Below are positions 2,009 through 19,094 of a DNA stretch of 62,823 nucleotides, one piece after another. Below the pieces are notes generated by a model. It made no database searches. It saw nothing but the letters and a program-made list of their open reading frames with translations, and was not told the DNA's origin. The position numbers and the translations under genes are program-made. Location: positions 1 to 62,823 of the forward strand of contig DATEKY010000065.1 of NCBI GenBank assembly GCA_035277225.1, given 5' to 3'. The DNA comes from Xanthobacteraceae bacterium. Lineage in GTDB: Bacteria > Pseudomonadota > Alphaproteobacteria > Rhizobiales > Xanthobacteraceae. Numbering within the stretch: position 1 is the first letter of the stretch; each line of letters starts with the position of its first letter.

Positions 2009-2310
2009 CCCTGGACAGGTTCATGCCAGGTGCCACTGTTAGGGGCTGTGTTTTCAGCACCTTACAGGCAATGGACGGCGACCGGCATCGACGACTTTCG
2101 GTTGTTCGATGTCACGAATGTGATCGCGAGTTGACCAGCCGCGGGATGGGAGGCGCAGACTGGTAGCGCCGTCGAGCTTTCCCAGGATTTTCCTGCACGG
2201 CGTAAGCGATTGACCACACACCATTTGCGGGGGTGCGGCCCCAAACAGAGGCGAAAAAAGTACGAAAACAATTGACGGCTCGGAGCCGCAGCCTTATTCT
2301 GGCCGCTTGC

Positions 2311-3609
2311 ATGCCCGCCGCCGACTTGTTGATAAAGCCGCAAAAGCCAACTTTCATTGACCTTTTTGCCGGCTGTGGCGGGTTCTCTCTCGGGTTCTGC
2401 CAGGCTGGATGGCAGGGCGTTTTCGCCATAGAGCGCGATGCATCTGCCTTCAAGACGTTTTCCAGTAACTTCCTCGATTCGAACTCCGAATACCCTTTCC
2501 TTTGGCCAGAGTGGCTGGAGAAAAAGAACGTCGACATACGACGGGCTCTCCGCGATCACCGCTCCGAACTGAGGAAGTTGCGTGGATCGATTGACGCGAT
2601 CATCGGAGGGCCACCGTGTCAAGGATTCTCGTTCGCTGGCCACCGCCGTCGCACGGATACGCGAAACCAGTTGTTCCGGGCTTACATCGACTTCGTCAAG
2701 GTCGTCCGTCCGCGCTTTGTTCTGATCGAGAACGTGCGGGGCATCTGCATCGAGCACGGGAAGAAGCAGCGACTTATTCGAAAGAATGGTCGGCCTGCGA
2801 TCCCATTCGCCCAGCGCATCGTTGATGCCTTGAAGGAGTTGGGCTATTGCACACGGGATCCCGAGTTAGTTCAGGCATCCGACTTCGGCGTACCGCAACG
2901 GCGCCCGCGCGTATTCTTTTTCGCGTATCGCAAGGACGCCGTGTCCGGCGTTGCGGAGCTGTTCAAGACTCTCTACGAATCGCGTCGGGGGTTTCTTCAG
3001 CAAAGGTCACTGCCGGTGAAGCGGCCCGTCCATGTCGAGGAGGCGATTTCCGACTTGATTCGCAAGCATGGGACCGTGAAGTGCGAAGACAAGTCATCGC
3101 CGAAAGGGTTTAGGCAGGGACTCTACGGTGCAAGGGAGTCCAAGTACCAGAGCCTCTTGAGAAACGGACACAGGCCGGGAATTCCCGCGCAGAGTCATCG
3201 TTTCGCCAATCACGAGGACGAAACCGAAAAGCGATTCAGGAAGATCCAGAAGGAATACCGCAAGGGCGTTCAACTTCACCAGCGCGATCGCGCGGAGTTG
3301 GATATCTCAAAGCACGTCGTCGTGCCTTTACGCGGCGACCAAATCGGCCACACGCTTACCACGCTACCGGACGATTACATTCATTACTGCGAGCCGAGAA
3401 TATTAACCGTGCGTGAGTATGCTCGCCTCCAAAGCTTCCCGGACGAATTCGTTTTCGACGGGCCATTCACAAGCGGAGGCGATCGTCGAAAGAAGACGTG
3501 TCCTCGTTATACCCAGATCGGCAATGCGGTTCCGCCTCTATTGGGCGAAGCGTTGGCCCTCGCCCTTCTCAAGATTCACGCTGCCGAAGATGCCGTACAA
3601 GCAGAATGA
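2311..3609 (+). CDS. DNA (cytosine-5)-methyltransferase
   Basis: C5-MTase motifs I, IV, VI, VIII, IX and X are all readable: FIDLFAGCGGFSLGF (I), GGPPCQGFS (IV), ENV (VI), QRRPRVFF (VIII), TVREYARLQSFPD (IX), GNAVPPLL (X). ATG at 2311; an alternative upstream start lies at 2233. Confidence 0.93.
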   Translation: MPAADLLIKPQKPTFIDLFAGCGGFSLGFCQAGWQGVFAIERDASAFKTFSSNFLDSNSEYPFLWPEWLEKKNVDIRRALRDHRSELRKLRGSIDAIIGGPPCQGFSFAGHRRRTDTRNQLFRAYIDFVKVVRPRFVLIENVRGICIEHGKKQRLIRKNGRPAIPFAQRIVDALKELGYCTRDPELVQASDFGVPQRRPRVFFFAYRKDAVSGVAELFKTLYESRRGFLQQRSLPVKRPVHVEEAISDLIRKHGTVKCEDKSSPKGFRQGLYGARESKYQSLLRNGHRPGIPAQSHRFANHEDETEKRFRKIQKEYRKGVQLHQRDRAELDISKHVVVPLRGDQIGHTLTTLPDDYIHYCEPRILTVREYARLQSFPDEFVFDGPFTSGGDRRKKTCPRYTQIGNAVPPLLGEALALALLKIHAAEDAVQAE

Positions 3610-5794
3610 GACTGTCGATCGCCTCCTGCTCCAGGCGTACGGTCAGAAGGCCGCGGTCGCCCTGCCCATTCCTCGCGCGGATGGTGCCGCAGTCGTTGGG
3701 AGGTTTCCTGCTGGCGTTAATAACACTCTCGACCATCTTGTAGATGCGTTCGTGGGCTGGCGCGAACGGCGAGAGGTCCATTGGTGCTTCCTGATCGGTG
3801 GACCAGGAAACGGTAAGTCGGAGGCATTGCGCATCCTCGCCGGCGCCCTCAACGTCACGCTGCCTGGCCGCGGAACCGGAGACCCCGCACCACGGACGGT
3901 ACCAAGTGAATGGCCCACATCGGCGCTCCCAGTGCACGATGGGCTCGAGATAGCTTTCATCAACGACGCGTCCATTCCTAGGCCGGATTGCCTGGGTCGC
4001 AACCTGCCCACATCGCTTTACAAGGATCTCGTGGACGGCCTCCAAAGGCTGGATCAGACGAACCCTGTCGTCTTGTTCGGCAACGTCAATCGCGGAATCT
4101 TGATCGAAGAGGTTGCAGCGAGTGAATCAGGGGTGAATGAGAATGATTCGTCGACTGGCGCCCTCGCTGTGCAAATCCTGGCTTGGCTGTCTCGCCCGGA
4201 CCAGCAACTCGATGCGGCTTCCGGACTCGCGGTGCCCTTCAAACCGACACGGTCGACAAAGTACTACTCACAAGCTGTCTTTAATGGCCAAACGAACAAG
4301 CTGGTCGTTCACGCCCTGTTTCTCGACACGCTCTCCCTTCTGGAGCCGTCCCCCGGCGGAACTAAAAGTATAGATTTCAGCAAGTCTCCTCCCGCCGTCG
4401 CGCCATACCACCCCATTGGAAGCGTCGATCCGACACAGGGCTCCAGGGAAGTGACTGTTGCCGGAGAGCGCACAGCGTTTTGGACGAGAGCCTCGTTGTG
4501 GAACGACGGCGGTTGCACGATCAACGGTCAGCAGTGCGCCGCCTACTCGGTATGTCCGTTTGCGGCTAACGCTCAGTGGCTACGCGCGCCGATACTGCGG
4601 GAACATTTCCTGTCCCTCATGCGCGGTGTCGAGGTCGCTGCTGGGAGACGCCTCTCCTACAGAGATCTTTTGGCCTACCTCTCTCTGGCCATCGTAGGGC
4701 CTCCCGAGGAAGCATGGCTGAACGGCCTCCATCCTTGTCGCTGGGTTGAGGATCGGCATCGCTTGGGTGACAGTCAGGCTCTCGCCGAATTGACGCACCG
4801 CCGCGTGTACGTGAACCTGTTTCCTAACCCGTCCTCGGATAGCTGGAAAAAGATCTCCCGGGGAGCGAAAACGGCACGAACCGTATATGGCTCGGTGCAG
4901 CGACGGTTCGTCGACGCCATCGAGCCAACGCTCAGTCCCTTTCATCGGAGCCTCGCGCGTCTCGATCCCGCAAGGGATGCAGATTCCTGGAACGAGCTCA
5001 GAACCAAGATTCTCGACATCTGTGACGCCGCCGACATTGAGCTGCCCGCCGTGCAGCTGCGAAACCTACCGGACCTGCCAGCCGCCGCGCATTCCGACGG
5101 TGAACAGGCCTTGGACCAGCTGGTGTCAGCGGAAATCGCAGGGGATCTAGCGAGTGGGAGCCGAATCGGGTCTGACCGGGTTCGCATCTTGCGCAAGTGG
5201 CGAGGCGTCCTATTGCTGCGCCAGGCGGGTCTCGCTACAGGGAACTTCACCTTTCGCAACACGATCAACGCGTGGCTCAGGGAGCACAGCGCGGCCTTGA
5301 GCGAGCTGCCTGGCGGAAGCCAGCTCCAAGTGGGCCTCACGAACCTGATACTCCCGCGCGTGGAATTAGGCGCCGCGCAACACTACATTCTTGTGCTGCC
5401 GCTTCGTCCACGGACGTATGCCCTAAGCGCATTGCCAGATCCATTCTCAGCATTCGTCGCGATCCCGCATGGCAACCTTCGCGTCCGCATGGTGGCTGAA
5501 AGCGACAGGCTGATCGCCGAAATCAGTGTCGTGGGTGCCACCGACGTGAAACGCATCGCAGATGTCGTTGTCGACTTCGCCATCGCGCGTGAAGGTCTCA
5601 TCCAGGCAACGGGTGACTTCACTGGATTCACCGAGATCGGGTACGGCGCCTTCGCACGGATCGAACGAGCCCGGGCCGCACTGGTCGGCAGGAAGCAGAC
5701 CGAGGATTTGTTGCTACACGTGGTCGGTTCAAGCGGTGATCACTTCCGCCTCGAACCCAATCCAACCGGAACTCCCGCGCTTCGAGCGATGTAG
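3590..5794 (+). CDS. P-loop NTPase of unknown family (DptF-like position and architecture)
   Basis: 734 aa from the ATG at 3590, which overlaps the methyltransferase 3' end by 20 nt. Walker A is FLIGGPGNGKSEAL (nt 3797-3820). A possible Walker B-like motif is LEIAFINDAS. The rest has no motif I recognise. Confidence 0.8.
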   Translation: MPYKQNETVDRLLLQAYGQKAAVALPIPRADGAAVVGRFPAGVNNTLDHLVDAFVGWRERREVHWCFLIGGPGNGKSEALRILAGALNVTLPGRGTGDPAPRTVPSEWPTSALPVHDGLEIAFINDASIPRPDCLGRNLPTSLYKDLVDGLQRLDQTNPVVLFGNVNRGILIEEVAASESGVNENDSSTGALAVQILAWLSRPDQQLDAASGLAVPFKPTRSTKYYSQAVFNGQTNKLVVHALFLDTLSLLEPSPGGTKSIDFSKSPPAVAPYHPIGSVDPTQGSREVTVAGERTAFWTRASLWNDGGCTINGQQCAAYSVCPFAANAQWLRAPILREHFLSLMRGVEVAAGRRLSYRDLLAYLSLAIVGPPEEAWLNGLHPCRWVEDRHRLGDSQALAELTHRRVYVNLFPNPSSDSWKKISRGAKTARTVYGSVQRRFVDAIEPTLSPFHRSLARLDPARDADSWNELRTKILDICDAADIELPAVQLRNLPDLPAAAHSDGEQALDQLVSAEIAGDLASGSRIGSDRVRILRKWRGVLLLRQAGLATGNFTFRNTINAWLREHSAALSELPGGSQLQVGLTNLILPRVELGAAQHYILVLPLRPRTYALSALPDPFSAFVAIPHGNLRVRMVAESDRLIAEISVVGATDVKRIADVVVDFAIAREGLIQATGDFTGFTEIGYGAFARIERARAALVGRKQTEDLLLHVVGSSGDHFRLEPNPTGTPALRAM

Positions 5795-5825
5795 GTAGCC
5801 CTTCATCGTCCGCACGAGCATTGAT

Positions 5826-7343
5826 ATGGCTGACAGTTGGTTAGAGGCGGCACTGCCGCTGGATAGGCCGGAGTACTCAAAGCAGACCGAAGCCCTGCTT
5901 ACGGACCTCCTATGGCGTTCAGAGGGTTCGACGCTCAGCGAAGTCGCGACGCAGCTCGCTGGTCTCGAGACAACCACAAAACAGAAGCTGGAAAGGGTCG
6001 TTTTCGAGAAGATCGGTAAGGCATCACCTGCAGTTCTGGAATCGATTCCTTTTGCTCGGGAAGCGGATATCAGTTCGATTGTTGCCGGACCGAGGGCCAA
6101 GGAGTGCCTGGCAGCCCTGCTCTTCGGCTTGAGAGCGCCTCGTTCAAGAGCGTACAAGTCCCTATCCGCAGTTCCTGTTCACCCGGAACTAGTGGCATTA
6201 CAGACGTTGCACGGGATCGTCAACAAAGAGAACCCAGCAAACCTCGCGAAGATCATTGAACGTTTCGGTCTGTTGGGCGGTTCGGATGGGGTTGGCGCTG
6301 TGGCTCGCCAGTTCCTTGCTGGCTTTGAAGCGCAACCAACGGCTCAACGCGGTCTGGCTGGTGCAGCCGGTGCCATCTACACGTCAATCTCCAGCGCGGT
6401 TTGGGAACAGCTGAGAACGCTAGCGGCAGCTTCCGGGAAGCCGTTGCCCGAGTGGCCAACCGTACGACCGAGACAGCACGAAGCCGCCGTTACTTTTCCC
6501 CACGTAGCCGCGCTGCCGCGCACGCCATTCAAGTGGTTCTGGGCCAAGTGGGTCATCCTCTGTGATCGCGAACGCGGCTGGCTGGATCACTTACCGGAAA
6601 GACGCTGGGTTGACTGGAGCCTTGCGCTGCTACGTGGTGCCTTGGCGTTTGGATATCTCTGGGAGGCGGAATGGTACGTGCGCATCTACGATCGGCTGGT
6701 TGAGCGACGACGAGGGTTAGAGCAAGGTCCCGAGAGGGAGAAACTCCTCGGCCTGCTCAACGGTCAGTTCACCCTCGCCGTGGTTCATCCTCGGCAGCTC
6801 GCGCCTTCGCAGAAGAGGATGTGGAGTGCACTTGCGGACAACGTTGCCAGGGGTTACGAAGTCAGGCGCCGATTGATCGCGTTCTTCGTGAACAATCCAA
6901 CGAACCAACCGCAGGATGGTGACCCGCGCACGACGGTTCCAGAATGGATCGACGCGCTGTCAATTGAAGATCTCGCGACGCTTGGGGACAGCCTGTCGAT
7001 CACAGCTTCGACAGCCACGAACACGAAGGAGTTCATCAGGTACTTGATGCTGCAACGATCCGCCGATGACGACTCCAGCGACCAAGCGGACCTTTACTAC
7101 TTGGCCCGCTCTCAGCAGTCGCATTTCTGGGTCGAGCTTGGCCCCGAATGGCTCGTCGTGGAGACGGCCCTGCTGGCCGGTCGCCCTGGGAAGAGCTGCA
7201 CCCTCAGGATGCTCATGGACGACTTGTCGTCGCTCGGTATCTTGATAGACCGATCGACGCTGGTCGGTTTGCTTGAGGATACGGGTTTGAGTGCGGATAG
7301 CCCGGATGCCGACGACGCCCTCGTCATCGAGTCCGGATTCTGA
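5826..7343 (+). CDS. Hypothetical protein (DptG-like position; no recognisable motif)
   Basis: 505-aa ORF lying 31 nt after the previous gene and 5 nt before the next. Its composition is protein-like. Confidence 0.8.
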   Translation: MADSWLEAALPLDRPEYSKQTEALLTDLLWRSEGSTLSEVATQLAGLETTTKQKLERVVFEKIGKASPAVLESIPFAREADISSIVAGPRAKECLAALLFGLRAPRSRAYKSLSAVPVHPELVALQTLHGIVNKENPANLAKIIERFGLLGGSDGVGAVARQFLAGFEAQPTAQRGLAGAAGAIYTSISSAVWEQLRTLAAASGKPLPEWPTVRPRQHEAAVTFPHVAALPRTPFKWFWAKWVILCDRERGWLDHLPERRWVDWSLALLRGALAFGYLWEAEWYVRIYDRLVERRRGLEQGPEREKLLGLLNGQFTLAVVHPRQLAPSQKRMWSALADNVARGYEVRRRLIAFFVNNPTNQPQDGDPRTTVPEWIDALSIEDLATLGDSLSITASTATNTKEFIRYLMLQRSADDDSSDQADLYYLARSQQSHFWVELGPEWLVVETALLAGRPGKSCTLRMLMDDLSSLGILIDRSTLVGLLEDTGLSADSPDADDALVIESGF

Positions 7344-7348
7344 CGACT

Positions 7349-10300
7349 ATGGGATTCCTGGGCAGCGCACTGGCGACTTACCTTGCTGAGTTCCGAGGCT
7401 TATATTCGGTCCAGCTCCCGCAAGCGCTGCGACCTGAGTTGGTCCGGCTCGTCGCGGACCTTAACAGCGTGACACCGAGGCGCGGGATCTACGTCAGTGA
7501 TCTCGACCTCCCGGGCGCGCCGCTCACGAGCCGCTGGGCCGAGGCATTGAGGTGGCGGACGGCGGACGATCGGATTTTTGTGTGGGAGCGCGGGGCGGGG
7601 GAGCCGGATTCATCCTTTCAGAGCGCCGTTCGCGATTTCATCGGTCCGCGGTTTCCAGTCGATGGGAGCATCTGTGACCTTGCGACGCTCGCGACGCTCG
7701 TGGTTCGGCACCTCTTTGCGTCGCGCGGCCTGAGCACTTCGGGGCCCTTCTTCGACGGCTTTGCTAACACGGCTGCCTGGGTTGCTGATGCCTATGCCTT
7801 GCTGTTCCGCGAGATCGGTTCGTCGACGGTTTCGCATTGGACCGATGGCTTCTTGGTCGAGTGGTCAGACTTCTGCGATCACCTTCCGCTCGTACTCGAC
7901 CGAGCGGTTGCCGAAGGGCTTCAACCTCGATTCGCCTGGGACATCGTTCGAGTCGCCGGCCTGGTCGTACCCCAGTTGGAAGCCGGAAGTCCGTTCGGGA
8001 ACTCGCCAGTCGACCACCTTCCTCACGAGAAGGCGCTCACGAAATACATCAAGACTTGGCAGCAAGTCGTTGGCAACTTTCTCGGTTCCAGCTCACATCG
8101 CGTCGTCCTTCTAAACGAGTTGGATCGTCGCGTTCAGGGTGCCGGAAGCCGGACGCCGTGGCGCGACCTTCCGTGGAACCAGCTCGATCAAGTCGCCGAC
8201 GGGTCGAGCGCAGCGGCCGTCGGCCGTCGAGTGTTTGCAGCGCCATCGTCGGTGTCCGTTATCGGCCCGCAGCCGCCGGTATATCCGGCTGCGCCTGACG
8301 GAACTTGGTGGGGTGTCACGGAGGAAGATCTGCAGGCGGCGATCGATGAGGTCAAAGAGGAGAGGCCGGTCGAACCGCTGCCATCGAGCCAGACAGTCAT
8401 ACAGCCGTTTCAATCGACGGACAATTACCTGCTTGCGACCCGCACCGGCAGTATCACCTTCCCGAGTACTGCTAAGAAATGGCGCTGCGCGATCCAGTGC
8501 CCCGAAGTTGAACTCCAGTATCGCGGTCGCTGGAAGTCCCTCTTTGTCGAGGAGGATGAGCCTGGAGGCGCCATTGATGGCGATGCTTGGATCCACCCCG
8601 GTGACATCGAGGTGAAGATATCTGGGAAAGGCGTGTCCGCAACGGTCGCGAACGCCGACAGTGTTGGCGGCCTGCTGAGGGTCACCTGCAACATCAAAGT
8701 TGAGTATTCGGGGGCCATTGACGCTACATCACAACGCGTCACGAGTGAGTGGGATCCCCACCGAAGCCTTGCGTTGATTCTGAAGATCTACAATCGTTCG
8801 GCAGACGGCTTCGCTGCTGCGCGGGAGGCACGCTCACAGATGGAACTCGTCGTTCCATCTTGCCTGGCTCCGACCATCGTCCTGAGGGCTGATGGCGACA
8901 CGGTCGTGTCGCCGACCGGAGATGATGAGTTCGTCCGCGAGCCAGGCGCCGAACAGGCCGCACCGTCAAGCACCCCCGAGATCAAACTGGCCGATGAAGA
9001 TGTGTATGACGTGTGCGTCTACGACGGCACCGTACGCGCCGGGATTGGTGCTTTCAACGATCCGAGTCCCGTAAGCGTAGGGGACGCCACGCTCGGCGTA
9101 GACCCCAACGTCATTGGCCTTGGCGTCGGCAGGCCCGCGCTTGCAGACGGAACAACACTTACGCGTCAAGCCAGCGGCCAACAAGACGAGCTGGCGGTCA
9201 TTCGCATCCTGGAAGAACAGCCGGCAGCTGTCTCTTCTGGCATCGTGGCCGTCCTCCAGGGGAAGCCCGCCGCACGGAGGCCGCCGAGCAACGCGGCCAC
9301 CGTCTCGATTCTCGGTCAGCATCAAACGCGTGTCGTTCGCGGAATCTGTTCCCAGCTCGGCGTCCTGCCGTTTGTTTCGTTGTTCCACACAGTTGTGGCA
9401 TCAGGGAGTTCTGTCGCCGTCTGGCCTGACCGACACCCGGCGACCAAGAGCCCCCTTTTCATCGGCCTTTCGCATGGCAGCCTCCCGGGAATCGGGAGTG
9501 GCCCAAGCACCATCTTCGGGACGCCAGAGTGGGCCGCTTTTGGCGACTCGCTCGAAGAAGTGTGCGCAGCCATCGGCCTGACACCGGAATCCCATGCTCT
9601 CTGGTTGTCAGGTTTCGACCCCTCGACCGTTCCGAGCACGGTGGTCCGTCGTTACAATCAGGCCCACGCGGCGCTGATCGATGCGGCGGAAGCGATTTCA
9701 CCAGCCGAGACGTTCTGGACCAGTTACCCGTTCTCCGTCGTTGTCGTAAACGGCCAACCAGGAAAGCACTTCGGCCAGCTTGAGGCAGTCCTGCTATCGC
9801 CGCTTCATCCTGTTCGTTTGACGTGGGCTCATTCGGTGGCAACGTTTGCGCGCCACATCGACGTGCGGGCGCCCGGCAGCCGAGAACTTCTCGGCTTGGC
9901 TGAGGGGTGGAACTTCCCGTTAGTCGGCCATGCGCCGAATGCTACCGGAGGGAAGCTTCAGCTCGTGGCGGTTCCGATCGATCCCGGGCCTGAACGAGAC
10001 TTCATCCAGTGGAGTGCTTTAGCTACCTTGGTACAAGGCCTCGTCGAAGTTCCGTCCGAGGCGACCGGGTTGCCGCTCCCCTGGGCCGGACGTTCCGGCA
10101 TCAACGACAAGGTCGTTCAGAGGTCGCTCGACGACTATCTAGCCGTTTCGCCGTATGTCGGCTCCCTTGTTGTCGATCTCCGCAGCGTTGCCCAAGCCCC
10201 GCGCTCTGCCGAGATCGACAACGCGGTCCTCGAGTTCTTGACCGACGCGTCGAATCCACTGGTTACAGCCCTGCCCGGCGGCGCGAGAGTGTGGGATTCA

Positions 10301-13192
10301 GCGTACAGGGAAGGACCGCCTCCGAGTAGAGACCGGCTCGCGACGTTCCGAGAGAAGAACCCCGATAGTGAAGTCGCGTTCGAGTGGAGATCGTACCAGC
10401 CGCCAGCTGTTCCCTCTCACTCGGATGTGGCGTTCGTCGAGAACGCCAGCGTCAGTCTCGATGTGGTGAATGGGACATCAGCCGGCTTCCTCGGTCCGCT
10501 CCCGCTGCGGCGCTTCTTGCCGGCCGATAACGCCCCCGGGCACATGGATCAGAACTTCAGGCCCAACGCAGATGAGGACGTACTTGGCTTGGCGTCTCTG
10601 CTTCGCAAGCTTGAGACGATCGGCAGCGATCTGGCCCTGCGATCCAGCCCAAGCCTCCAGACCCTTGGTATTGCACAAGGCGGCAAGTGGGAAGTGATCG
10701 GGACCCTCAACTTGTCGCCCCAGCTGCTGGCGTTGACGCTTGCAGGCACCACCAACAGCGCAGCCCGATTGCTTTGGGAGTGGCGGCCTTCTTGGCTGAA
10801 TCCTGAACGCCAGGCGGATGCCGACCTTGCCAGGCGTCCCTACTACGTGGTGGCGCGAATTCCCGCTTCGCTGAGCGTCGGTTTGGCATCGCGCCAAATG
10901 CTCTCCCAGGAGCGGATCAACCTCATGATTTCGGAACTAGGTCGACGTGCCGTCGGCCTGGCTACGTTATACGCCGCAGGCGACGCTCATGAGAATGCCG
11001 CCGCCGGCTTTTACGATGCCCTACAGCTTTTGCTGCCAGCGAATGTCACCACGCCTGCAGCGTGGATTCGACCCGCGCCATGGATCCAAACCATCGTACC
11101 GATTGACCCGCTAGCTGAGCTACTTGGAGCCCTCGGGGGGAAGAAGTTCCAGAGACGCGCGGATCTTTTGGCTGTCGGCTGTGTCCGCGACGGCATCGGC
11201 ACCCACGTCTGCCTGACACCCATCGAGGTCAAGCACCATGGGACACCAGCGAACCCGGCACCGCGGCCTCCCGATTCAGATCCAGAGCTGAAGCGCGCAC
11301 GGGACCAACTGAAACAGACGAACGAAGTCCTCGCATCGATACGTGACGCGTTGCCGGCGACCGAGGGCAACACGATGGTGGCGCTCGGACGCCGAAGCGG
11401 ACTTGCCGTTCTTATGGACTTCGCACTGGACTTCGCCGCGCACCCTGTTCCCGCTGAGCAGCGGGCGAAGATGATCGAAGACGTACTTGCGGGCAGATGC
11501 GCGATTTCCGTGGGTACGCCTTGCCTCTTGTGGCTCGCGCCCGGTTGCATGAGTCACACAGGTACTGCCGTCATTCGCAACCAGTTCGATGTCACGGCTG
11601 ACCTCCGAATCGAAGAGGCGTACGTCGATCCATACGCCGTACCGGGTCTTCTGTGGCCGGGCGAAGTCGCAGGCCCGAACGAACTGTTTGCCAGGACGCG
11701 CCTCGACGATATGATGACCGAGGCGACAAGCACATGCGGGCCAAGCAGCGTGGGCGGCTTCGACTTGCGGCCACCGTTGAAGACGCTCCTCAAGATCGAG
11801 GACGAGGAAGTGAAGCTGGAACCGGTCGTGGAAGGACCGGCGCCGGCTCCCGCCCCGGTGCCCGAGACCCCGCCGGTCATCCAACAAGCGCCACTGCCCC
11901 CGACTCCCGCGACGCCCGTTCAACCGCCCGCTCCGGTGTACTCGTCGACGCCTGTTCCTCCAACTCCGGCGGTGGTCGCATCCGGCGAACAGCCGCAGAT
12001 GGCCGCGCCGCAACTCGTCGTGGGTTCGCGCCAGCCTGGATCTCGCTGGACAGTTCTCGGCAAGCTGGCTACGGGATCACAAGAGCCTGTCGCGCTTGAC
12101 CTCGACCAACCGAAGGTGCTCGGGATCTTCGGCTACATGGGGTCCGGCAAGAGTTACCTTCTAGGAGCCGTAACGGAAGCGGCCGTCCAATCGATCGCGA
12201 ACCTCAACCAGCTCCGGGCACCATTGGCGGTCATCGTATTCAACTACCGCCGCAACGCCTCCGACAGGTTCGAGTTGTCCTCTCTGACGAATCCGAATGC
12301 AGATGCCGGGGATGTCAAGAGACTCGCGGACGAATTGAGCGCATTGCCTGCGGCTGTTCGCGACATGCACGTCTTGGCCTTGAAGGGTGAACTCAGACCA
12401 CACCGGCTGGCCGAGTATGGCACGACCACGGCGCAGGAGCTTCTATTCCGGCCCTCTACGCTTCACGTCGAGGACTGGGAGTTACTGATGGGCGAGCCAG
12501 ACGCCAACCGGCTGTACTCGCAGCTCATGCGCCATGCTTTGATCCAGCTGCGGGAACAGGGAGACGTGTCAGTCACGGGGCTCCGCACTCAGATCACCGC
12601 GTTCCCGAATCCAGGAAGCCGTAACGCAGCGAACCAGCGCCTGACCTTTGCGGAGAGGCATCTCTCTGAGTCGGCCGGGATCAACTTCAGCGAGGTTGTG
12701 CAACCGGGCCGCGTGCTCGTCATCGACCTGAGACAGCCGCTCTTCAGCAGAGATGATGCCCTACGGTTCTTCCTCGTGTGTGCGAATCAAATCAGCAGGG
12801 TCCAGGGGCAGTTCAACAAAATGGTGATTTTCGACGAAGCGCACGAGTACCTTTCCGAAGCATTCGGCGAGAAATTGGACAGCCGGATTCGGCTCAGCAG
12901 GCACGAAGGCACGTCGTACGTCTTTGCCACGCAGGACGTGGGTTCCATTCCGACAGAAATTCAGCGTTTCATTTCGACCAAGTTTGTCTTCGGTCTCGGT
13001 TCGAATCAAAACGCCAAGGACCTGCTCGAGTTCGCGCCCGAGTTCAAGGGGTTCGAACTGGTGGAGCTGCCGACAGGACAGTGCTTCGTGCAGTCAACAT
13101 ACTCGAGCAAGAATTTCTTTTCGCAGCCACGATTGATTCGCGTCCGTCCGCGGGCGTCTGCGCATGGTGGCGCTACCAGGATCTTCGCGTGA
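7349..13192 (+). CDS. Giant 1,947-aa protein with an unassigned N-terminal region, a PD-(D/E)xK-like motif, a Pro-rich linker and a C-terminal HerA/FtsK-like ATPase (DptH-like architecture)
   Basis: Single uninterrupted ORF. Motifs seen: ADLLAVG...VCLTPIEVKH (nt about 11160-11243); Pro/Ala/Thr-rich linker (nt about 11820-11990); Walker A GYMGSGKSYLLG (12131-12154); Walker B MVIFDEAHEYL (12821-12850); then RHEGTSYVFATQDVGSIP, typical of HerA/DUF87-type ATPases. Confidence 0.9.
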   Translation: MGFLGSALATYLAEFRGLYSVQLPQALRPELVRLVADLNSVTPRRGIYVSDLDLPGAPLTSRWAEALRWRTADDRIFVWERGAGEPDSSFQSAVRDFIGPRFPVDGSICDLATLATLVVRHLFASRGLSTSGPFFDGFANTAAWVADAYALLFREIGSSTVSHWTDGFLVEWSDFCDHLPLVLDRAVAEGLQPRFAWDIVRVAGLVVPQLEAGSPFGNSPVDHLPHEKALTKYIKTWQQVVGNFLGSSSHRVVLLNELDRRVQGAGSRTPWRDLPWNQLDQVADGSSAAAVGRRVFAAPSSVSVIGPQPPVYPAAPDGTWWGVTEEDLQAAIDEVKEERPVEPLPSSQTVIQPFQSTDNYLLATRTGSITFPSTAKKWRCAIQCPEVELQYRGRWKSLFVEEDEPGGAIDGDAWIHPGDIEVKISGKGVSATVANADSVGGLLRVTCNIKVEYSGAIDATSQRVTSEWDPHRSLALILKIYNRSADGFAAAREARSQMELVVPSCLAPTIVLRADGDTVVSPTGDDEFVREPGAEQAAPSSTPEIKLADEDVYDVCVYDGTVRAGIGAFNDPSPVSVGDATLGVDPNVIGLGVGRPALADGTTLTRQASGQQDELAVIRILEEQPAAVSSGIVAVLQGKPAARRPPSNAATVSILGQHQTRVVRGICSQLGVLPFVSLFHTVVASGSSVAVWPDRHPATKSPLFIGLSHGSLPGIGSGPSTIFGTPEWAAFGDSLEEVCAAIGLTPESHALWLSGFDPSTVPSTVVRRYNQAHAALIDAAEAISPAETFWTSYPFSVVVVNGQPGKHFGQLEAVLLSPLHPVRLTWAHSVATFARHIDVRAPGSRELLGLAEGWNFPLVGHAPNATGGKLQLVAVPIDPGPERDFIQWSALATLVQGLVEVPSEATGLPLPWAGRSGINDKVVQRSLDDYLAVSPYVGSLVVDLRSVAQAPRSAEIDNAVLEFLTDASNPLVTALPGGARVWDSAYREGPPPSRDRLATFREKNPDSEVAFEWRSYQPPAVPSHSDVAFVENASVSLDVVNGTSAGFLGPLPLRRFLPADNAPGHMDQNFRPNADEDVLGLASLLRKLETIGSDLALRSSPSLQTLGIAQGGKWEVIGTLNLSPQLLALTLAGTTNSAARLLWEWRPSWLNPERQADADLARRPYYVVARIPASLSVGLASRQMLSQERINLMISELGRRAVGLATLYAAGDAHENAAAGFYDALQLLLPANVTTPAAWIRPAPWIQTIVPIDPLAELLGALGGKKFQRRADLLAVGCVRDGIGTHVCLTPIEVKHHGTPANPAPRPPDSDPELKRARDQLKQTNEVLASIRDALPATEGNTMVALGRRSGLAVLMDFALDFAAHPVPAEQRAKMIEDVLAGRCAISVGTPCLLWLAPGCMSHTGTAVIRNQFDVTADLRIEEAYVDPYAVPGLLWPGEVAGPNELFARTRLDDMMTEATSTCGPSSVGGFDLRPPLKTLLKIEDEEVKLEPVVEGPAPAPAPVPETPPVIQQAPLPPTPATPVQPPAPVYSSTPVPPTPAVVASGEQPQMAAPQLVVGSRQPGSRWTVLGKLATGSQEPVALDLDQPKVLGIFGYMGSGKSYLLGAVTEAAVQSIANLNQLRAPLAVIVFNYRRNASDRFELSSLTNPNADAGDVKRLADELSALPAAVRDMHVLALKGELRPHRLAEYGTTTAQELLFRPSTLHVEDWELLMGEPDANRLYSQLMRHALIQLREQGDVSVTGLRTQITAFPNPGSRNAANQRLTFAERHLSESAGINFSEVVQPGRVLVIDLRQPLFSRDDALRFFLVCANQISRVQGQFNKMVIFDEAHEYLSEAFGEKLDSRIRLSRHEGTSYVFATQDVGSIPTEIQRFISTKFVFGLGSNQNAKDLLEFAPEFKGFELVELPTGQCFVQSTYSSKNFFSQPRLIRVRPRASAHGGATRIFA

Positions 13193-13974
13193 CGATCGCT
13201 CGCGTGAGTCGAAGAGTCGGAAACACCAAGGCCGCACACGGTGACCGGCGGCTTCCACGCAGTGAGTCCTGCCACAGCGTGCGACGTCGTTTGCTTGCTT
13301 GGCTTGAGGGTCATGGCCGAAGCTTCGCTTGGCGTCGGCCGTCAGCTTCGTTGTATCGGCTTGTTGTCACCGAGGCGCTGCTCCAACGAACTAGGGCTGA
13401 AACGGTTAACAATTTCTACGCGCCCTTCTTTCGGCGTTTTCCATCTTGGCAGGCTTTGGCACAGGTTTCTGAAGCCGAATTGCAGGATTACCTGCGGCCG
13501 ATCGGATTGTGGAAGCGCCGGTCGGCCAGTTTGCGGAGCCTCGCGATCGAAATGGCCAAGCGACGTGGGCGCTTCCCTTCGGCCAGAGAAGAGATCGAGG
13601 CCTTACCTGGTGTGGGCCAGTACGTCGCGAATGCGGTCCTGCTGTTTGCGCATGGACGCAGTGAGCCGCTGCTTGACGCCAACGTTGCGAGAGTCTTGGA
13701 GCGCCACTTTGGACCGCGACGCCTTGCCGACATCCGCTACGACCCATACCTTCAAAAGTTGGCAAGAATGGTCGTCTCGTCCGAGCGCCCAGCAAAAGTC
13801 AATTGGGCTCTTTTGGATTTGGCGGCGTTGATCTGCCGCATCCGGGCGCCTCTGTGTCAAGAGTGCCCGCTGTCCGCGACCTGCCACGATTACACTCGTC
13901 GGCGGAACAACGCGGACGATGTTACCGAGGCCAAGTGCGGTCGCAGAACCGCTAGCATCACACGAGCAGTCTGA
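13189..13974 (+). CDS. HhH-GPD DNA glycosylase with a 4Fe-4S cluster, MutY/Mig-like
   Basis: Motifs seen: LVVTEALLQRTRAETV; HhH LPGVGQYVANAVLLFA; catalytic-Asp motif LLDANVARVLERHFG; Cys-X6-Cys-X2-Cys-X5-Cys (CRIRAPLCQECPLSATC). The GTG at 13189 overlaps the TGA of the giant gene (GTGA). Confidence 0.85.
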   Translation: MTIARVSRRVGNTKAAHGDRRLPRSESCHSVRRRLLAWLEGHGRSFAWRRPSASLYRLVVTEALLQRTRAETVNNFYAPFFRRFPSWQALAQVSEAELQDYLRPIGLWKRRSASLRSLAIEMAKRRGRFPSAREEIEALPGVGQYVANAVLLFAHGRSEPLLDANVARVLERHFGPRRLADIRYDPYLQKLARMVVSSERPAKVNWALLDLAALICRIRAPLCQECPLSATCHDYTRRRNNADDVTEAKCGRRTASITRAV

Positions 13975-14086
13975 ATGATCCGACGCGCCAATCAACCGGC
14001 GCGGTAGCCAACGTTCACGCGAGCGGTTGTAGCGTCGCCGCAATCTGGTCGGACCCGCAGCTGTTCGTCTCAGCAGGAGGCATCAA

Positions 14087-15883
14087 GTGGCGCGATTGGC
14101 GGGTTTTCCTGAAGACACATTCCTCGCAATGACCCGCATTCGCGACACTTCTCTAGTGCGCTTTGATAGCCTCTTTACGCCCGACCGCCACCTCTGGGCT
14201 GCCCAGAACCTGAAACGCTTTCATGCCTTGTTCGTCGAGCGCTTCGACGAGGGCGAGGGCTCGTTCTTGGAGAAGTTTCGTAAGCAGCTCGATGGAGCCG
14301 ACGACGATGTCTACCAGCTCGCCGCGGAGTTGCTTTACGTTCAGCAGTTCTTCACGAGCTTGACCGGGCCCGATAAGAAGATCGAGAACGTGCAAGCCGT
14401 TCTCGGCTGGTGTACACATCCCGTCCAAGTCCCAGAATGGGCGATCTCTGGCGTCAAGCGCGGCCTCGCTGGAGATCAAAGTTTCAATCAGCACCGTCCC
14501 TTCCATCTGGCGTGGCTGAACGAGTTCCTGATTCACTGGCATGAGACGCCAAGCGAGAAGAGGAGCGACCTCCTTAAGGACCCGTGGCTCTTCGCTCAGC
14601 ATGAACGAGGCGTCGAGTTCTCAGGTGGAGCTTACCAGCCGATGCGCGAGGCTTGGCTCTACATCATCTTCCCAGAGCATTTCGAGAACATCTCCTCCCG
14701 GCGGGACAAGAAGCTCATTCGGGAGGCATTCAAAACACGACTCGAACACGGCGCCACCGACAACATCGACGCGGACCTGCTGGCGATCCGAAAGAGCTTC
14801 AGTCCCCAGGAGGGCGAGGGGTTCCACTTCTATCGCTCGCCGTTTATCGAGCAGTGGCAAACGGAGCGGAAGAAGACAAAGAGCAATGACGGTGGCACGG
14901 TTAGCAAGTTGAAAGGCGAGTTGCCAGTTGTCGAGCGCCCACAGAGCCCTGTGTCTCTGGCGACGACGTCGATCGATCAACTGAGTGCTCTCGGCGCCGA
15001 CCTCTTTCTCGATCCGCCGGCGGTACTCGGTGAGTGGGCCGCTCTTATCCTCGATGCTCGACAGTTGATCTTCCAGGGGCCACCTGGGACCGGAAAAACG
15101 TTCATCGCGCGTAAGCTCGCCGATGCAATCGCCGGTCACCGAGATCGAGTTGAGCTCGTGCAGTTTCACCCGTCGTACGCATACGAGGATTTCGTCGAAG
15201 GGTACCGACCTGTCGGCGCTGGTTCCTTCGCGTTGCAGCCCGGACCGATTAAACGCCTAGCCGCCAGGGCGACAGCCGCGCCCGATCACCGCTTCGTCTT
15301 GGTCATTGACGAGATCAACCGGGGCAACCTGGCGAAGGTCTTTGGCGAGCTGTACTACCTTCTCGAGTATCGCGACGACGCCATCACGCTGCAGTACTCC
15401 CAGGAGCCCTTTCGCCTTCCGCCGAATGTCCACATCGTCGGTACCATGAACACCGCCGACCGTTCGATCGCTTTGCTCGACATGGCCTTGCGACGGCGCT
15501 TCCGGTTTGTCGACCTCCTGCCGGACAGTCCGCCGCTTAAGGGATTGTTGAGAAGGTTTCTCGACCGAAAGGCGCCGGACATGGCGTTCCTCGCGGACAT
15601 GCTCGACGATGTCAATCGACAATTGAACGATCCGCACGCATCAGTAGGGCCAAGTCACTTCTTGCTCAAAGACACTCGGACACTGACGGAAGACAAGGCT
15701 GAACTCATTTGGAACCACTCGATTCTGCCTGCACTTGGTGACCGCTTCTTCGATTCGCCCGAGGAGTTGAAAAGGTTTCAGTACCAGACCGTACGCGGGC
15801 GAACGTCGCTTGGCGATTTGGTGACTCCGTCACCCTCCGAAGAACCCGAGGACGACGAGCGTGCGTCGACTGACGCTAACTGA
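14087..15883 (+). CDS. mcrB: McrB-like AAA+ GTPase subunit of a modification-dependent restriction system
   Basis: Motifs seen: LIFQGPPGTGKTF, VLVIDEINRGNLAKVFGELYYLLEYR, IVGTMNTADRSIALLDMALRRRFRF. GTG start is preceded by AGGAGG (14074-14079). The roughly 320-aa N-terminal domain is not recognisable. Confidence 0.9.
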   Translation: MARLAGFPEDTFLAMTRIRDTSLVRFDSLFTPDRHLWAAQNLKRFHALFVERFDEGEGSFLEKFRKQLDGADDDVYQLAAELLYVQQFFTSLTGPDKKIENVQAVLGWCTHPVQVPEWAISGVKRGLAGDQSFNQHRPFHLAWLNEFLIHWHETPSEKRSDLLKDPWLFAQHERGVEFSGGAYQPMREAWLYIIFPEHFENISSRRDKKLIREAFKTRLEHGATDNIDADLLAIRKSFSPQEGEGFHFYRSPFIEQWQTERKKTKSNDGGTVSKLKGELPVVERPQSPVSLATTSIDQLSALGADLFLDPPAVLGEWAALILDARQLIFQGPPGTGKTFIARKLADAIAGHRDRVELVQFHPSYAYEDFVEGYRPVGAGSFALQPGPIKRLAARATAAPDHRFVLVIDEINRGNLAKVFGELYYLLEYRDDAITLQYSQEPFRLPPNVHIVGTMNTADRSIALLDMALRRRFRFVDLLPDSPPLKGLLRRFLDRKAPDMAFLADMLDDVNRQLNDPHASVGPSHFLLKDTRTLTEDKAELIWNHSILPALGDRFFDSPEELKRFQYQTVRGRTSLGDLVTPSPSEEPEDDERASTDAN

Positions 15884-17090
15884 GTTCAGAACGGAGCCGG
15901 CAGTTCCCTTGTCTGTTGAGGAGAGGGATGGTATTCGGCGGCTCCATCCAGGCATTCGCATCGAGCCCACCGTTGGATTCGACGGCCGATACGACCTGAC
16001 GCCCGACCAGCGAATCGGCCTGGTCTGTCTCCCGACAGTGGTGGTTGAGATCCGGCCCAAGGTGCCGATGTCCTCGGTACTGCTTTTGGTTTCCTACGCC
16101 TGCGACGCCGCATCGTGGGTCGACCATCAGCCAGAGTTCTCGCGCGATTTGGACTTGGTGGAGATGATCTCGATCATGCTGGCCAAGATGGTCCAGCATG
16201 CGACACGGCGGGGACTTCTCAACGGCTATCAGTGCGAAGACGAGCCGCTGCAGGCGCCGCGTGGCCGGATCCTGTTCGACGAACAGATTCGGCGAAGGCT
16301 GGGACACGCACCACCGATTGAGGTTCGCCATGACATCTTCACGGCGGACATTCTTGAGAATCGGCTGCTACAAGCCGCGCTTGCGACGGTGAGCCGGATT
16401 CCTCTTCGATCGGTGGTGACACGCCGTGAATTGGCTCGCGCTCAAAGGCTTTTCGGCTCAGTCAAACGCCTCCGCTTCTTGCCGGCCGCTGTCCCCGACG
16501 TTGTCTTTACGCGACTAAATCGTCACTATCAGCCGGCGATTGCGCTGGCGACCTTCGTGCTTCGGTCTGCGTCTCTTGAACTCGGCGCTGGTGGTACGCA
16601 AGGGTCGGCGTTTCTGATTGACATGAATGCCGTTTTCGAGCGTTTCCTCCGAACCGCGCTTCGAGAGGCACTGGATGTCGACCCGAGTTCATTCCCCGAG
16701 CGTCCTCCACGGACCAGCCTCGACGTCGCCGGCGTGGTGCCGCTCAAGCCGGATCTCTGTCTGCTGGATCGGCGTGCAATCGTCTGGGTCGGCGATGCCA
16801 AGTACAAACGTCTTCCAATGGGCGGATACCGCAACGCGGATCTGTATCAACTCCTGGCCTACAGCATTGCCCTAAACCTTCCCGGAGGAACACTTGTCTA
16901 TGCCGCGGACGAAGGCGTGACGGCAGCTGAACACACCGTCGTCGAAAGCGGCAAGCAGCTGAGAGTCGTTGCCCTCGATCTGACCGCGCCCAGATCGAAC
17001 ATCCTCCTGCAGATCCGCTCCCTAGCTGCGTCTATTCGTCCTCGACGCGCTGAACCCGAAGTGATCGGCCAGCGGCGTGGAGTGGCGTAG
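15861..17090 (+). CDS. mcrC: McrC-like nuclease subunit
   Basis: 409 aa, overlapping mcrB by 23 nt. C-terminal PD-(D/E)xK-type motif PDLCLLD...IVWVGDAKYKR. Confidence 0.85.
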   Translation: MRRLTLTEFRTEPAVPLSVEERDGIRRLHPGIRIEPTVGFDGRYDLTPDQRIGLVCLPTVVVEIRPKVPMSSVLLLVSYACDAASWVDHQPEFSRDLDLVEMISIMLAKMVQHATRRGLLNGYQCEDEPLQAPRGRILFDEQIRRRLGHAPPIEVRHDIFTADILENRLLQAALATVSRIPLRSVVTRRELARAQRLFGSVKRLRFLPAAVPDVVFTRLNRHYQPAIALATFVLRSASLELGAGGTQGSAFLIDMNAVFERFLRTALREALDVDPSSFPERPPRTSLDVAGVVPLKPDLCLLDRRAIVWVGDAKYKRLPMGGYRNADLYQLLAYSIALNLPGGTLVYAADEGVTAAEHTVVESGKQLRVVALDLTAPRSNILLQIRSLAASIRPRRAEPEVIGQRRGVA

Positions 17091-17116
17091 CGTTCAAGTC
17101 GTACGCGACCACAGCT

Positions 17117-18018
17117 ATGCGACTGAACTTGGCCTACTTCGACACGTCAGCATGGAACGACCTCGTTGACCATGTCGAGAGCGAAGCGATCGTCGCCGCG
17201 CTGGGATCCAGGGCCGTCATCGTCTTCGCGAGCGTGATTTCGGCGGGCGAGATCCTCAAGACGCCTTCTGCCGATCGCCGCGAGCGCCTTTGCTCCATCA
17301 TGCTGAAGCTCCACGGAGACGTGGCGCTGCTTGAGAGACCGATGACACTTGCGGCCGAGGCCGCCAGGGCCTTCTTTCGTGAGGAGCGGGACTTCTCTCT
17401 GCCGCGCACTGGGCCGGGCCGGTCTCTGCTTGAGTTTCTCAATTGCCCTAATACGGCCGATACGTCATCCATTGCCGCTTGGCTTCAGAACCTTGACCGA
17501 AACCATGAGAGGTTTCTCAAGGAGATCCGCCCTGAACTGCCGGATCCAAATACTCGCTACTACTCTGCGGAACTTCTCCACACAGAGCCCTTCCTGAAGT
17601 TGCTCTCAACCGTCCCCGCCGCACAGGAACTCAGCCTGTCGGTCCGCAGATCGCGGACCTCACCGTCGGAGTCGATGTCTGGCGGGCTGTTGCAGGCACG
17701 ATGGGGTACATCATCACGCAATCGACATCCCATTCGGCGAAGACGAGGCAGGGGCGAAGCCGGCCAGGCGGTCCGGACATGTGGCAGGTTGTCTACCTCG
17801 GCGTCGCCGAAGCATTCGTCAGCAGTGACGAACGGCTGCTTGAAGCAGCGCGGGAAGTTTCCAAGACGTTCCGCTACCCGAGGTGCGTGATTTCGACACG
17901 CGATTTTCTGGACGGGATCACCGTCTCGAACCTGAGCCACCGGTGCCCCGTGTGCGGCTCATCGACGCTGATTGGACTTCATGCGCTTGATCCAGGGATT
18001 GCGACTCCGTCGTCATGA
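17117..18018 (+). pseudogene. Frameshifted gene for a roughly 300-aa protein, possibly PIN-like
   Basis: Frame 1 (17117-) reads protein-like until about 17640 and then becomes Arg-rich. Another frame reads ...VGPQIADLTVGVDVWRAVAGTMGYIITQS...DMWQVVYLGVAEAFVSSDERLLEAAREV to 18018. The N-terminal YFDTSAWNDL and C-terminal FVSSDERLL resemble PIN acidic motifs. Confidence 0.5.
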
Positions 18019-19004: not shown

Positions 19005-19094
19005 GTTCAGAAGGGATGCGAAGCGGGACGATCGTTGCGCCGGTCTCCTGAACCGGTAGCTCTCGCGTTCAGTACGCGTAGCTTCGGACGACTC

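Follow-up and report, generated by a model that had tools for sequence, protein, structure and literature searches.

Can a restriction machine of the Dnd/Ssp type be coupled to a methylated base instead of a phosphorothioated backbone? The question is raised by five genes of a Xanthobacteraceae bacterium (contig DATEKY010000065.1), which lie in a stretch of 62,823 nucleotides (nt) that was analysed as a whole and is called the window here. A preliminary description of this DNA, made from its letters alone, had pointed to a C5 cytosine methyltransferase, three genes laid out like DptFGH (DndFGH) and SspFGH, and a mismatch glycosylase. It left two options, a modification-swapped relative of Dpt/Ssp restriction or an unrelated new system. 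It is likely that the operon encodes a Dnd/Ssp-type F/G/H restriction module with 5-methylcytosine (5mC) as its self mark instead of phosphorothioate and with built-in repair of deamination. The first option is favored because gene 2 has the predicted anatomy of DndF, distant relatives of gene 2 match SspF models, and gene 4 encodes a DndH-like giant. The five genes are as follows (aa, amino acids; pLDDT, predicted local distance difference test; pTM, predicted template modelling score).

2311-3609, plus strand: gene 1, C5 cytosine DNA methyltransferase, 432 aa (PF00145 1.4e-57, TIGR00675 2.7e-49, PADLOC MTase_II 3.6e-83).
3590-5794, plus strand: gene 2, F-like P-loop protein, 734 aa (AlphaFold pLDDT 92.6, pTM 0.92).
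5826-7343, plus strand: gene 3, G-like protein, 505 aa, with the acidic C-terminal tail GLSADSPDADDALVIESGF (no library match; downstream of the F-like gene).
7349-13192, plus strand: gene 4, H-like giant of 1,947 aa with several domains, putative effector (alignment of 11 homologues).
13189-13974, plus strand: gene 5, Mig/MutY-core HhH-GPD glycosylase, 261 aa (HhH-GPD 2.3e-15; iron-sulphur cluster C-x6-C-x2-C-x5-C).

The five open reading frames (ORFs) of the plus strand were found at these coordinates in the ORF reading of the window, and they are packed as one unit, as had been described. Gene 1 stops at 3609, 20 nt beyond the gene 2 ATG (3590), and the overlap of the two reading frames suggests co-expression. 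Spacers of 31 nt and 5 nt separate genes 2 and 3 and genes 3 and 4, respectively. The stop of gene 4 and the GTG start of gene 5 share GTGA at 13189-13192, and this 4-nt overlap between the giant and glycosylase genes is also present in two other copies of the operon (loci L001 and L007). The start codons of genes 2, 3, and 4 are backed by homologue alignments that begin at the same position.

Gene 1 probably encodes an active C5 methyltransferase, and it is presumed to be the self-marking enzyme. Its PF00145 match spans positions 2-322 of 324 and thus a complete C5 methyltransferase. The motifs FAGCGG, GGPPCQGFS, ENV, QRRPR, and GNAVPP are visible. It also matches the DruM and DrmMII models of PADLOC.

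Gene 2 is predicted to be built like a known restriction protein, DndF. DndF has been described as having a canonical Walker A, an ND at the end of strand 2, and Asn in place of the Walker B Asp (PMC10853773). Its lid is expanded to about 200 residues that form helices, in some cases with a Zn insert separating lid helices 1 and 2, and its C-terminal alpha+beta domain has two units of a helical hairpin and a beta-hairpin with a three-stranded meander between them (PMC10853773). The predicted AlphaFold model of gene 2, which was built with a 97-sequence alignment, carries each of these features; the comparison is with the published verbal description and not with a DndF structure. The N-proximal Walker A noted earlier is GGPGNGKS (residues 70-77). 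In the model, strand 119-124 has N125-D126 at its end, and LFGNVN is the sequence of the Walker B strand (160-166), with Asn. D126 and N167 are invariant in 59 sequences that are about 20% identical. A long lid is formed by helices (290 to 590), and a Zn-type Cys cluster (C309/C316/C322/C383) lies between its first two helices (290-298 and 323-332). The C-terminal alpha+beta domain (556-734) has helices at 556-587, a hairpin at 598-626, a meander at 630-660, helices at 663-697, and a hairpin at 709-723.

Four libraries were used to name the proteins, Pfam, NCBIfam (which should hold the DptF/G/H models TIGR03236-03238), PADLOC 2.0, and PHROGs. Neither gene 2 nor gene 3 has a match in any of them (for NCBIfam also at E ≤ 10), and sequence and profile searches of the PDB with gene 2 gave no match. 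A gene 2 profile found 107 clusters, all labelled hypothetical, from sources that include Rokuibacteriota, Chloroflexota, Bradyrhizobium, Mesorhizobium, and Gemmataceae. An exhaustive HMMER search put the superfamily at 668 cluster representatives (50% identity) at E ≤ 1e-3 and 299 at E ≤ 1e-30. GG[PA]GNGK[ST] and a downstream NRG are common to all inspected relatives among the matches listed.

Fifty-eight distant relatives of gene 2 (E ≤ 1e-41) were compared with the models of known systems. Thirty-five of them match the PADLOC SspF model PDLC02793 (best E 1.8e-9), and others match four further SspF models of PADLOC. None of the 58 matches the Dpt models of NCBIfam. The preliminary description had looked to TIGR03236/03237/03238 and to SspFGH profiles for confirmation; the former do not match genes 2-4, and it is the SspF models that match distant relatives of gene 2. 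Because of these matches the gene 2 superfamily appears to include or abut SspF. The link is transitive, through intermediates, and the scores are too weak to name these proteins SspF. Four of the 58 match the PADLOC candidate model PDC-S36 at 1.5e-33, and part of the superfamily has thus already been flagged as a defence candidate under that label. Three further distant relatives carry an HNH match, and several have N-terminal extensions of 100-230 residues.

Plasmids were searched for further copies of the operon. Megablast of the whole operon against plasmids gave no match. By tblastn, one plasmid record was found, the complete conjugative plasmid pSfreGR64a of Sinorhizobium fredii GR64. 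Its RefSeq annotation has, in one direction, a DNA cytosine methyltransferase, hypothetical proteins of 677 aa and 503 aa, an “ATP-binding protein” of 1,820 aa, and Vsr. The methyltransferase is 46% identical to gene 1 and the 677-aa protein 26% identical to gene 2. The 503-aa protein matches gene 3 with an hhalign probability of 89% (E 2e-6). The giant is 22% identical to gene 4 over 936 aa (E 6e-11), in an alignment that takes in SPLHPxRLxW, the nuclease motif, and Walker A. Judged from these alignments, the three middle Sinorhizobium proteins are homologous to genes 2-4.

Gene 3 had been described as having no motif that could be placed, and a profile search of the PDB was also empty. Its tail (residues 487-505) is almost invariant and acidic. 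The tail core GLxxDSPDA is kept in the 20%-identical Sinorhizobium 503-aa protein, which suggests that a partner subunit docks there. DndG has 450-500 aa and three winged-helix domains (PMC10853773), and gene 3, with 505 aa, fits it in size.

The giant encoded by gene 4 can be divided into the following regions after an N-terminal domain (residues 1-330).

8363-9208, plus strand: residues ~339-620, all-beta, probably two beta-sandwiches (AlphaFold model residues 59-340, pLDDT ~80-90).
9206-11068, plus strand: residues ~620-1240, the most conserved alpha/beta region (invariant columns; Foldseek methyltransferase folds).
11066-11758, plus strand: residues ~1240-1470, PD-(D/E)xK restriction-endonuclease-like core (R-x-D-[LIMV][LIV]...P-x-E-[VIL]-K), with a beta-alpha-beta-beta-alpha unit.
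11786-12013, plus strand: residues ~1480-1555, proline-rich, poorly conserved linker (homologue alignment).
12026-13189, plus strand: C-terminal HerA/FtsK-class ATPase (PADLOC mad8 5.2e-19, residues 1568-1943; AAA_10 2e-4).

The AlphaFold model of gene 4 covers residues 281-1480 (pLDDT 73.4, pTM 0.62). Foldseek ranks Ig-like beta-sandwich proteins highest for the all-beta region, at weak E-values. The alpha/beta region has the conserved motifs SPLHPxRLxWA, GWNxP, LPWxGxxGIN, FEWRxY, and LWEWRPSW. The Rossmann-like fold that the model has in this region was matched to the S-adenosylmethionine (SAM) methyltransferases 2eg5 (probability 1.00, E 0.03) and 8wwq (probability 0.90). Argonaute rows in the same output were discarded (probability ≤0.05). 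The methyltransferase catalytic motif [DNS]PP[YFW] was found neither in gene 4 nor in 42 of 45 giants. The N-terminal half of DndH contains an inactive SNF2 C-domain, a helix-turn-helix, two beta-sandwiches, a target-recognition domain, and an inactive DAM methyltransferase with a nested target-recognition domain (PMC10853773). In gene 4, a beta-rich region and a Rossmann-like fold were seen, at Foldseek E-values weaker than 1e-3 and in a model that starts at residue 281.

The giant has a classical PD-(D/E)xK nuclease core, which is probably active. All 36 giants that extend into this region carry the motif R-x-D-[LIMV][LIV]...P-x-E-[VIL]-K. Across 22 sequences that are 15-42% identical, P1251, D1253, R1270, D1272, E1293, K1295, and Q1320 are invariant, and D1253, D1272, E1293, K1295, and Q1320 are the candidate catalytic residues. 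The beta-alpha-beta-beta-alpha unit lies at residues 1246-1334 (pLDDT 76-90).

The ATPase at the end of the giant, which had been called HerA/FtsK-type from its sequence, is the only part that libraries recognize; in Pfam, NCBIfam, PADLOC, and PHROGs, all matches of gene 4 fall in its last 380 residues. Walker A is GYMGSGKS and Walker B is MVIFDE, with conserved R1848/R1851 and with Q1862 at the end of the following strand. A Q in the sensor-1 position and an upstream Arg finger are hallmarks of HerA/FtsK (PMC10853773). PDB searches matched this domain to TdpA (8wet, E 0.008) and FtsK (2ius, E 0.31), and searches with the whole giant and with the nuclease region gave nothing beyond these. The same position is held by FtsK-alpha (1.4e-13) and FtsK/SpoIIIE (2.1e-34) in the giant of Candidatus Chloroploca (locus L012), and by an ATPase of the DndH type in the Sinorhizobium giant (locus L016), where PADLOC DndH matches at 7.3e-69 in the ATPase part only. 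By these matches the ATPase of the giant is interchangeable between relatives, being mad8-type in the window and FtsK-type or DndH-type elsewhere. In DndH, repeated capture of HerA/FtsK domains has been described, including cellular FtsK with FtsK-alpha (PMC10853773). An index of 5.8 billion proteins holds at least seven clusters for the full giant and at least 10 for its core, counts that are no measure of rarity.

Gene 5 is presumed, from its matches and its neighbors, to be a T:G mismatch repair enzyme. The HhH-GPD glycosylase that had been named from the sequence was found again by profile. Gene 5 also matches the PADLOC REase_II model “Type II nicking endonuclease” (1.9e-31, 16-217 of 221). 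Its PDB matches are the catalytic domain of MutY (1e-31) and the entry 1kea, “Possible G-T mismatches repair enzyme” (1.5e-29, 19-217 of 221). With 261 aa it has no room for the C-terminal 8-oxoguanine (8-oxoG) domain of MutY. An HhH-GPD fold with catalytic Asp, an iron-sulphur loop, linkage to a C5 methyltransferase, and the lack of the MutY C-terminal domain place it with the Mig/MutY-core proteins. Vsr and Mig have unrelated folds, and both initiate the repair of T:G mismatches that come from 5mC deamination. Known pairs with a methyltransferase are Dcm-Vsr in Escherichia coli and M.MthTI-Mig.MthI on pFV1. At one other locus (L003), a dCMP/cytidine deaminase-family gene with MafB19-deam and Bd3614-deam matches (16886-17320, minus strand) lies directly after the glycosylase gene.

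How firmly these genes belong together was examined across relatives. Wherever a contig has enough flank, giant homologues of 42-71% identity lie in this five-gene arrangement. By tblastn, seven genome loci with all five genes were found, in a Planctomycetota metagenome-assembled genome (MAG), a Rokuibacteriota MAG, Roseomonas ponticola, Candidatus Chloroploca, and Alphaproteobacteria MAGs; exceptions among the seven are due to a contig end or to the intrusion of an insertion sequence (IS). Gene 2 relatives of 21-27% identity likewise have a C5 methyltransferase before them and a protein of about 510 aa after them. A metagenome scan seeded with a broad gene 2 alignment added 80 loci, for a non-redundant total of 86. 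Genes were detected in this census by tblastn with three query sets, which are blind to unrelated modification genes except at locus L060, scanned separately. A G-like gene follows F in 56 of the 61 loci with at least 1.8 kb downstream, a count that is low for divergent G proteins. With 4.5 kb or more of downstream sequence (50 loci), the H-like giant follows in 48. Where at least 1.5 kb upstream and 9.5 kb downstream are available (25 loci), a C5 methyltransferase gene is found in 22 and a gene for T:G repair in 20, the latter being Mig-type in 14 and Vsr in six, and never both.

The linkage of genes 2-4 to each other and to a C5 methyltransferase, on which the preliminary description had staked its proposal, is thus conserved in very divergent clades. 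It holds down to 23-30% identity and across several phyla. The methyltransferase gene remains linked whether it lies upstream, on the same strand, or downstream, on the opposite one (L005, L012, L024, and L059). Since two unrelated T:G repair enzymes, Vsr and Mig, alternate in one slot, that slot appears to serve deamination repair. This alternation is the strongest evidence that host DNA is methylated by gene 1 and that gene 5 is a repair accessory and not the effector.

Several points weigh against a Dnd/Ssp relationship and a 5mC mark. None of the Dpt, Dnd, or Ssp profiles of NCBIfam and PADLOC is matched by genes 2-4 (for NCBIfam even at E ≤ 10), and the link to these systems runs through intermediates and through agreement with a published verbal description. 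The combination of structure prediction and Foldseek that the preliminary description had proposed gave a divided answer, as the gene 2 model is DndF-like by description and, among solved structures, Foldseek gave nothing similar to it (best E 0.3, weak AAA+ rows). Because no match is better than this, gene 2 is unconfirmed as “AAA+” or “P-loop kinase”. The likeness of gene 3 to DndG is one of size. The gene 4 model is moderate (pLDDT 73), and every Foldseek match to it is weaker than E 1e-3. Gene 5 scores slightly better against MutY than against Mig, and its specificity for T:G is presumed. Finally, DndFGH is commonly decoupled from modification genes, and standalone action has been proposed for it (Rakesh et al., PMC10853773). 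If that is valid here, the methyltransferase would be a passenger.

It is this last point that supports the best of the alternatives. Genes 2-4 could be a standalone counter-invader system that uses other cues, and the methyltransferase and Vsr/Mig could be a co-travelling orphan or epigenetic cassette of the Dcm-Vsr type. Between clades the methyltransferase is 46% identical and F, G, and H are 22-26% identical, so the former could be exchanged independently. There is also an F/G/H locus with neither a C5 methyltransferase nor a T:G repair gene (L060, 4935-8305). Its F gene is, however, directly preceded by two unknown ORFs and by genes for a protein that resembles class I SAM methyltransferases (weak, 1.7e-5) and for a 2-oxoglutarate-Fe(II) oxygenase (5.8e-20). 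By sequence, these may form a third kind of modification module, in the position that the methyltransferase holds elsewhere. The other three of the four loci that lack a methyltransferase or repair gene have IS damage. The giant is interrupted by an IS integrase in L023 and L026. In L012 (Candidatus Chloroploca sp. Khr17, NZ_RYFF01000047.1; giant at 13854-19721), the methyltransferase ORF runs into an IS4/5 DUF4096 fragment and the glycosylase gene is missing. The overlap of the gene 1 stop with the gene 2 start also speaks for co-expression, and the methyltransferase is kept beside F/G/H in 22 of 25 fully flanked loci at 23-96% identity despite rearrangements of order and strand. A passenger methyltransferase therefore appears unlikely.

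The reading of the operon as a 5mC-coupled F/G/H module was compared with the named systems. SspFGH of Vibrio anguillarum FF-93 consists of a Walker A protein, a mid-sized protein without motifs, and a giant that ends in an FtsK/SpoIIIE-like domain (PMC8092258). The operon of the window has the same three-gene F-G-H order, which is kept in all loci. Its giant ends in a HerA/FtsK-class ATPase, and that of L012 in a true FtsK-alpha and FtsK. It differs in that its partner is a C5 methyltransferase and not SspBCD/IscS, and in that a T:G repair gene is an integral fifth component. To DndFGH/DptFGH it is linked by the peculiarities of gene 2, namely the ND, the Walker B Asn, the helical lid with its Zn insert, and the alpha+beta domain, although gene 2 is about 730 aa long. 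The likeness to DndH lies in the order of the giant (probable beta-sandwiches, a putative inactive methyltransferase-like module, a restriction endonuclease (REase), and HerA/FtsK) and in the exchange of its ATPase between clades. The DptFGH/SspFGH-like layout that had been proposed thus involves more than gene sizes. The partners of DndFGH and SspFGH are phosphorothioate genes (dndABCDE/sspABCD), in place of which a 5mC methyltransferase is found here. Pfam scans of the operon, its immediate neighbors, and ten large downstream ORFs found no phosphorothioate-type domains. In the literature, cytosine methylases are described as replacing phosphorothioate enzymes beside the DndD/CxC-DndE modification core, and DndFGH is treated as largely standalone (PMC10853773). 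From sequence and by analogy, the operon appears to be remotely related to Ssp/Dnd F/G/H restriction and to work like it, with a different modification partner and outside the profiles of these families.

As in Dcm-Vsr and M.MthTI-Mig.MthI, a C5 methyltransferase is genetically tied to Vsr or to a Mig-type glycosylase. Here, the pair sits in an operon with three large restriction-type genes and is neither an orphan nor accompanied by a type II endonuclease. Druantia type II and DISARM class 1 also couple a C5 methyltransferase to very large ATPase or nuclease proteins. Genes 2-4 have no DruE/F/G or Drm match, however, and the putative effector has HerA/FtsK and PD-(D/E)xK domains and not a DUF1998 helicase. 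MANTIS (Gao_RL), whose methyltransferase acts on adenine and whose gene set differs, was rejected as an identity. As had been suggested, the cluster falls outside the named systems, with genes 2-4 left unassigned by PADLOC-DB 2.0, NCBIfam, Pfam, and PHROGs. No account of a coupling between F/G/H-type genes and a C5 methyltransferase with Vsr/Mig was found in the searchable literature, outside which most subscription journals lie. The operon is probably an undescribed and widespread methylation-based anti-phage/anti-plasmid system.

MADS of Pseudomonas aeruginosa is a system of eight genes with an N6-adenine methyltransferase, and it discriminates self from non-self by methylation (bioRxiv 10.1101/2023.03.30.534895). 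The window operon shares with it a methylation-based, multi-gene organization, and mad8 (5.2e-19), to which the ATPase is closest, is the only defence-library match of the window giant. It is nevertheless very improbable that the operon is a divergent system of the MADS type or one related to BREX. The mad8 match is limited to the ATPase, and because the ATPase is an interchangeable part of the giant, it says little about the identity of the system. No other mad model matches any of the five proteins, MADS has eight genes, and the methyltransferase here is a C5 enzyme and not an N6-adenine one. MADS was therefore rejected as an identity.

A module for DNA segregation, conjugation, or repair on a mobile element, with a methyltransferase beside it by chance, is about as improbable. 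HerA/FtsK ATPases do pump DNA in conjugation and segregation, the Sinorhizobium copy is on a conjugative plasmid, and the window carries metal-resistance cargo. Against this stand the invariant restriction-endonuclease core of the giant, the remote homology to SspF-type proteins, and the location in a defence island with McrBC and REase-ARP. The patchy distribution across phyla, the pairing of methyltransferase and T:G repair that is typical of restriction-modification (R-M) systems, and frequent IS decay also argue for defence. Hardly credible is a restriction-glycosylase role for the HhH-GPD protein on unmethylated sites, with genes 2-4 as accessory motors or sensors: the closest PADLOC model of gene 5 is filed as a REase_II nicking endonuclease, base-excision restriction enzymes are an established concept (PMC10273834), and gene 5 overlaps the end of the giant gene, but the role was rejected because of Vsr, a T:G mismatch endonuclease of unrelated fold that replaces gene 5 in sister clades and never occurs with it, and further opposed by full-length alignment of gene 5 with 1kea and MutY catalytic cores, by the absence of the term HhH-GPD from the restriction-glycosylase review (PMC10273834), and by the invariant nuclease core of the giant itself.

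The favored 5mC-coupled restriction module could work as follows. Gene 1 would methylate cytosine C5 at a specific motif of the host DNA and so provide the self mark. F would be a derived P-loop nucleotide-binding sensor or regulator and G its small partner. In H, domains that contact DNA would be combined with an inactive methyltransferase-like module, a PD-(D/E)xK nuclease, and a DNA translocase of the HerA/FtsK class. F, G, and H may assemble on DNA as a complex in which the ATPase drives translocation. DNA without the 5mC mark would be translocated on and then nicked or cleaved, by analogy with DndFGH and SspFGH, and the inactive methyltransferase-like module of the giant may read the methylation state. 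Gene 5 (or Vsr) would take T out of the T:G mismatches that arise from 5mC deamination, offsetting the mutational cost of the mark. Damage to DNA not marked by phosphorothioate is established for both SspFGH and DndFGH, as is their toxicity once the modification genes are removed (PMC8092258, PMC12707154).

A broader reading is somewhat probable on balance. F/G/H machines would be able to recognize a modified base (5mC) and not just a modified backbone, the operons linked to 5mC would be a large, phylum-spanning, unnamed R-M class with integral T:G repair, and 5mC would be read by the inactive methyltransferase-like module of the giant. On this view, each of the 80 closest metagenomic loci that allows a judgement would point to a C5 methyltransferase and not to phosphorothioate genes. 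If this is true, many “orphan” methyltransferase and Vsr/Mig pairs have a hidden restriction partner that is not named by PADLOC 2.0, NCBIfam, or Pfam. The Dnd/Ssp restriction architecture would be a modular machine of reader, translocase, and nuclease that can be re-coupled to 5mC and is not bound to phosphorothioate. For the discrimination between self and non-self by DndFGH and SspFGH, the operon would offer an easier model system, since, in contrast to partial phosphorothioation, 5mC can be introduced in vitro and its sites mapped across a genome. The alternation of Vsr and Mig in one slot would mean that the mutational cost of a 5mC self mark is paid inside the defence operon.

The wider setting of the operon was also explored. 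A single promoter-like site can be pointed out:

2272-2300, plus strand: promoter-like site TTGACG-17 nt-TATTCT, 10 nt upstream of the gene 1 ATG (9 of 12 consensus matches; weak).

The promoter and terminator scan of the region gave nothing above chance, with promoter-like sites not above the shuffled expectation. The guanine-cytosine (GC) content is 56.5% in gene 1, 59-62% in genes 2-5, and 63.2% in the remaining 43 kb of the window. The lower GC that had been reported for the methyltransferase gene was found as a trend (56.5% against 63.2%), and the difference is smaller than had been given. Type IV secretion system genes, which had been placed next to the operon, were not seen among the window ORFs scanned, and three upstream ORFs have no Pfam match.

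The first 19 kb of the window are a defence island made up of the operon, McrBC, and REase-ARP. An McrB-like AAA_5 GTPase (7.4e-22) and McrC (PF10117, 1.3e-54) are encoded at 14087-17090 on the plus strand, 113 nt 3' of the operon. A REase-ARP/PD-(D/E)xK nuclease gene (7e-22) follows at 17979-19004 on the minus strand. McrBC is a type IV system that cuts DNA containing 5mC. Because such a cutter adjoins a 5mC methyltransferase, the 5mC motif of the host must escape McrBC. The McrBC pair and the REase-ARP nuclease are not conserved partners, and McrBC is not kept beside the operon at other loci. A copy of the operon from a soil metagenome (L001/L002; 1-664 and 19153-19821) is flanked by genes for TAGT (PF20691), SRAP (an abasic-site sensor), and NOV_C. 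These surroundings suggest another DNA-modification or defence island.

The remainder of the window (20000-62823) is a heavy-metal resistance region, and the metal genes of the preliminary description are thus real and lie downstream of the operon. A multicopper oxidase, an outer-membrane efflux protein, and two RND pumps of the AcrB/CzcA type are encoded there. The same region has genes for four P-type ATPases, one of them with HMBD and YHS domains.

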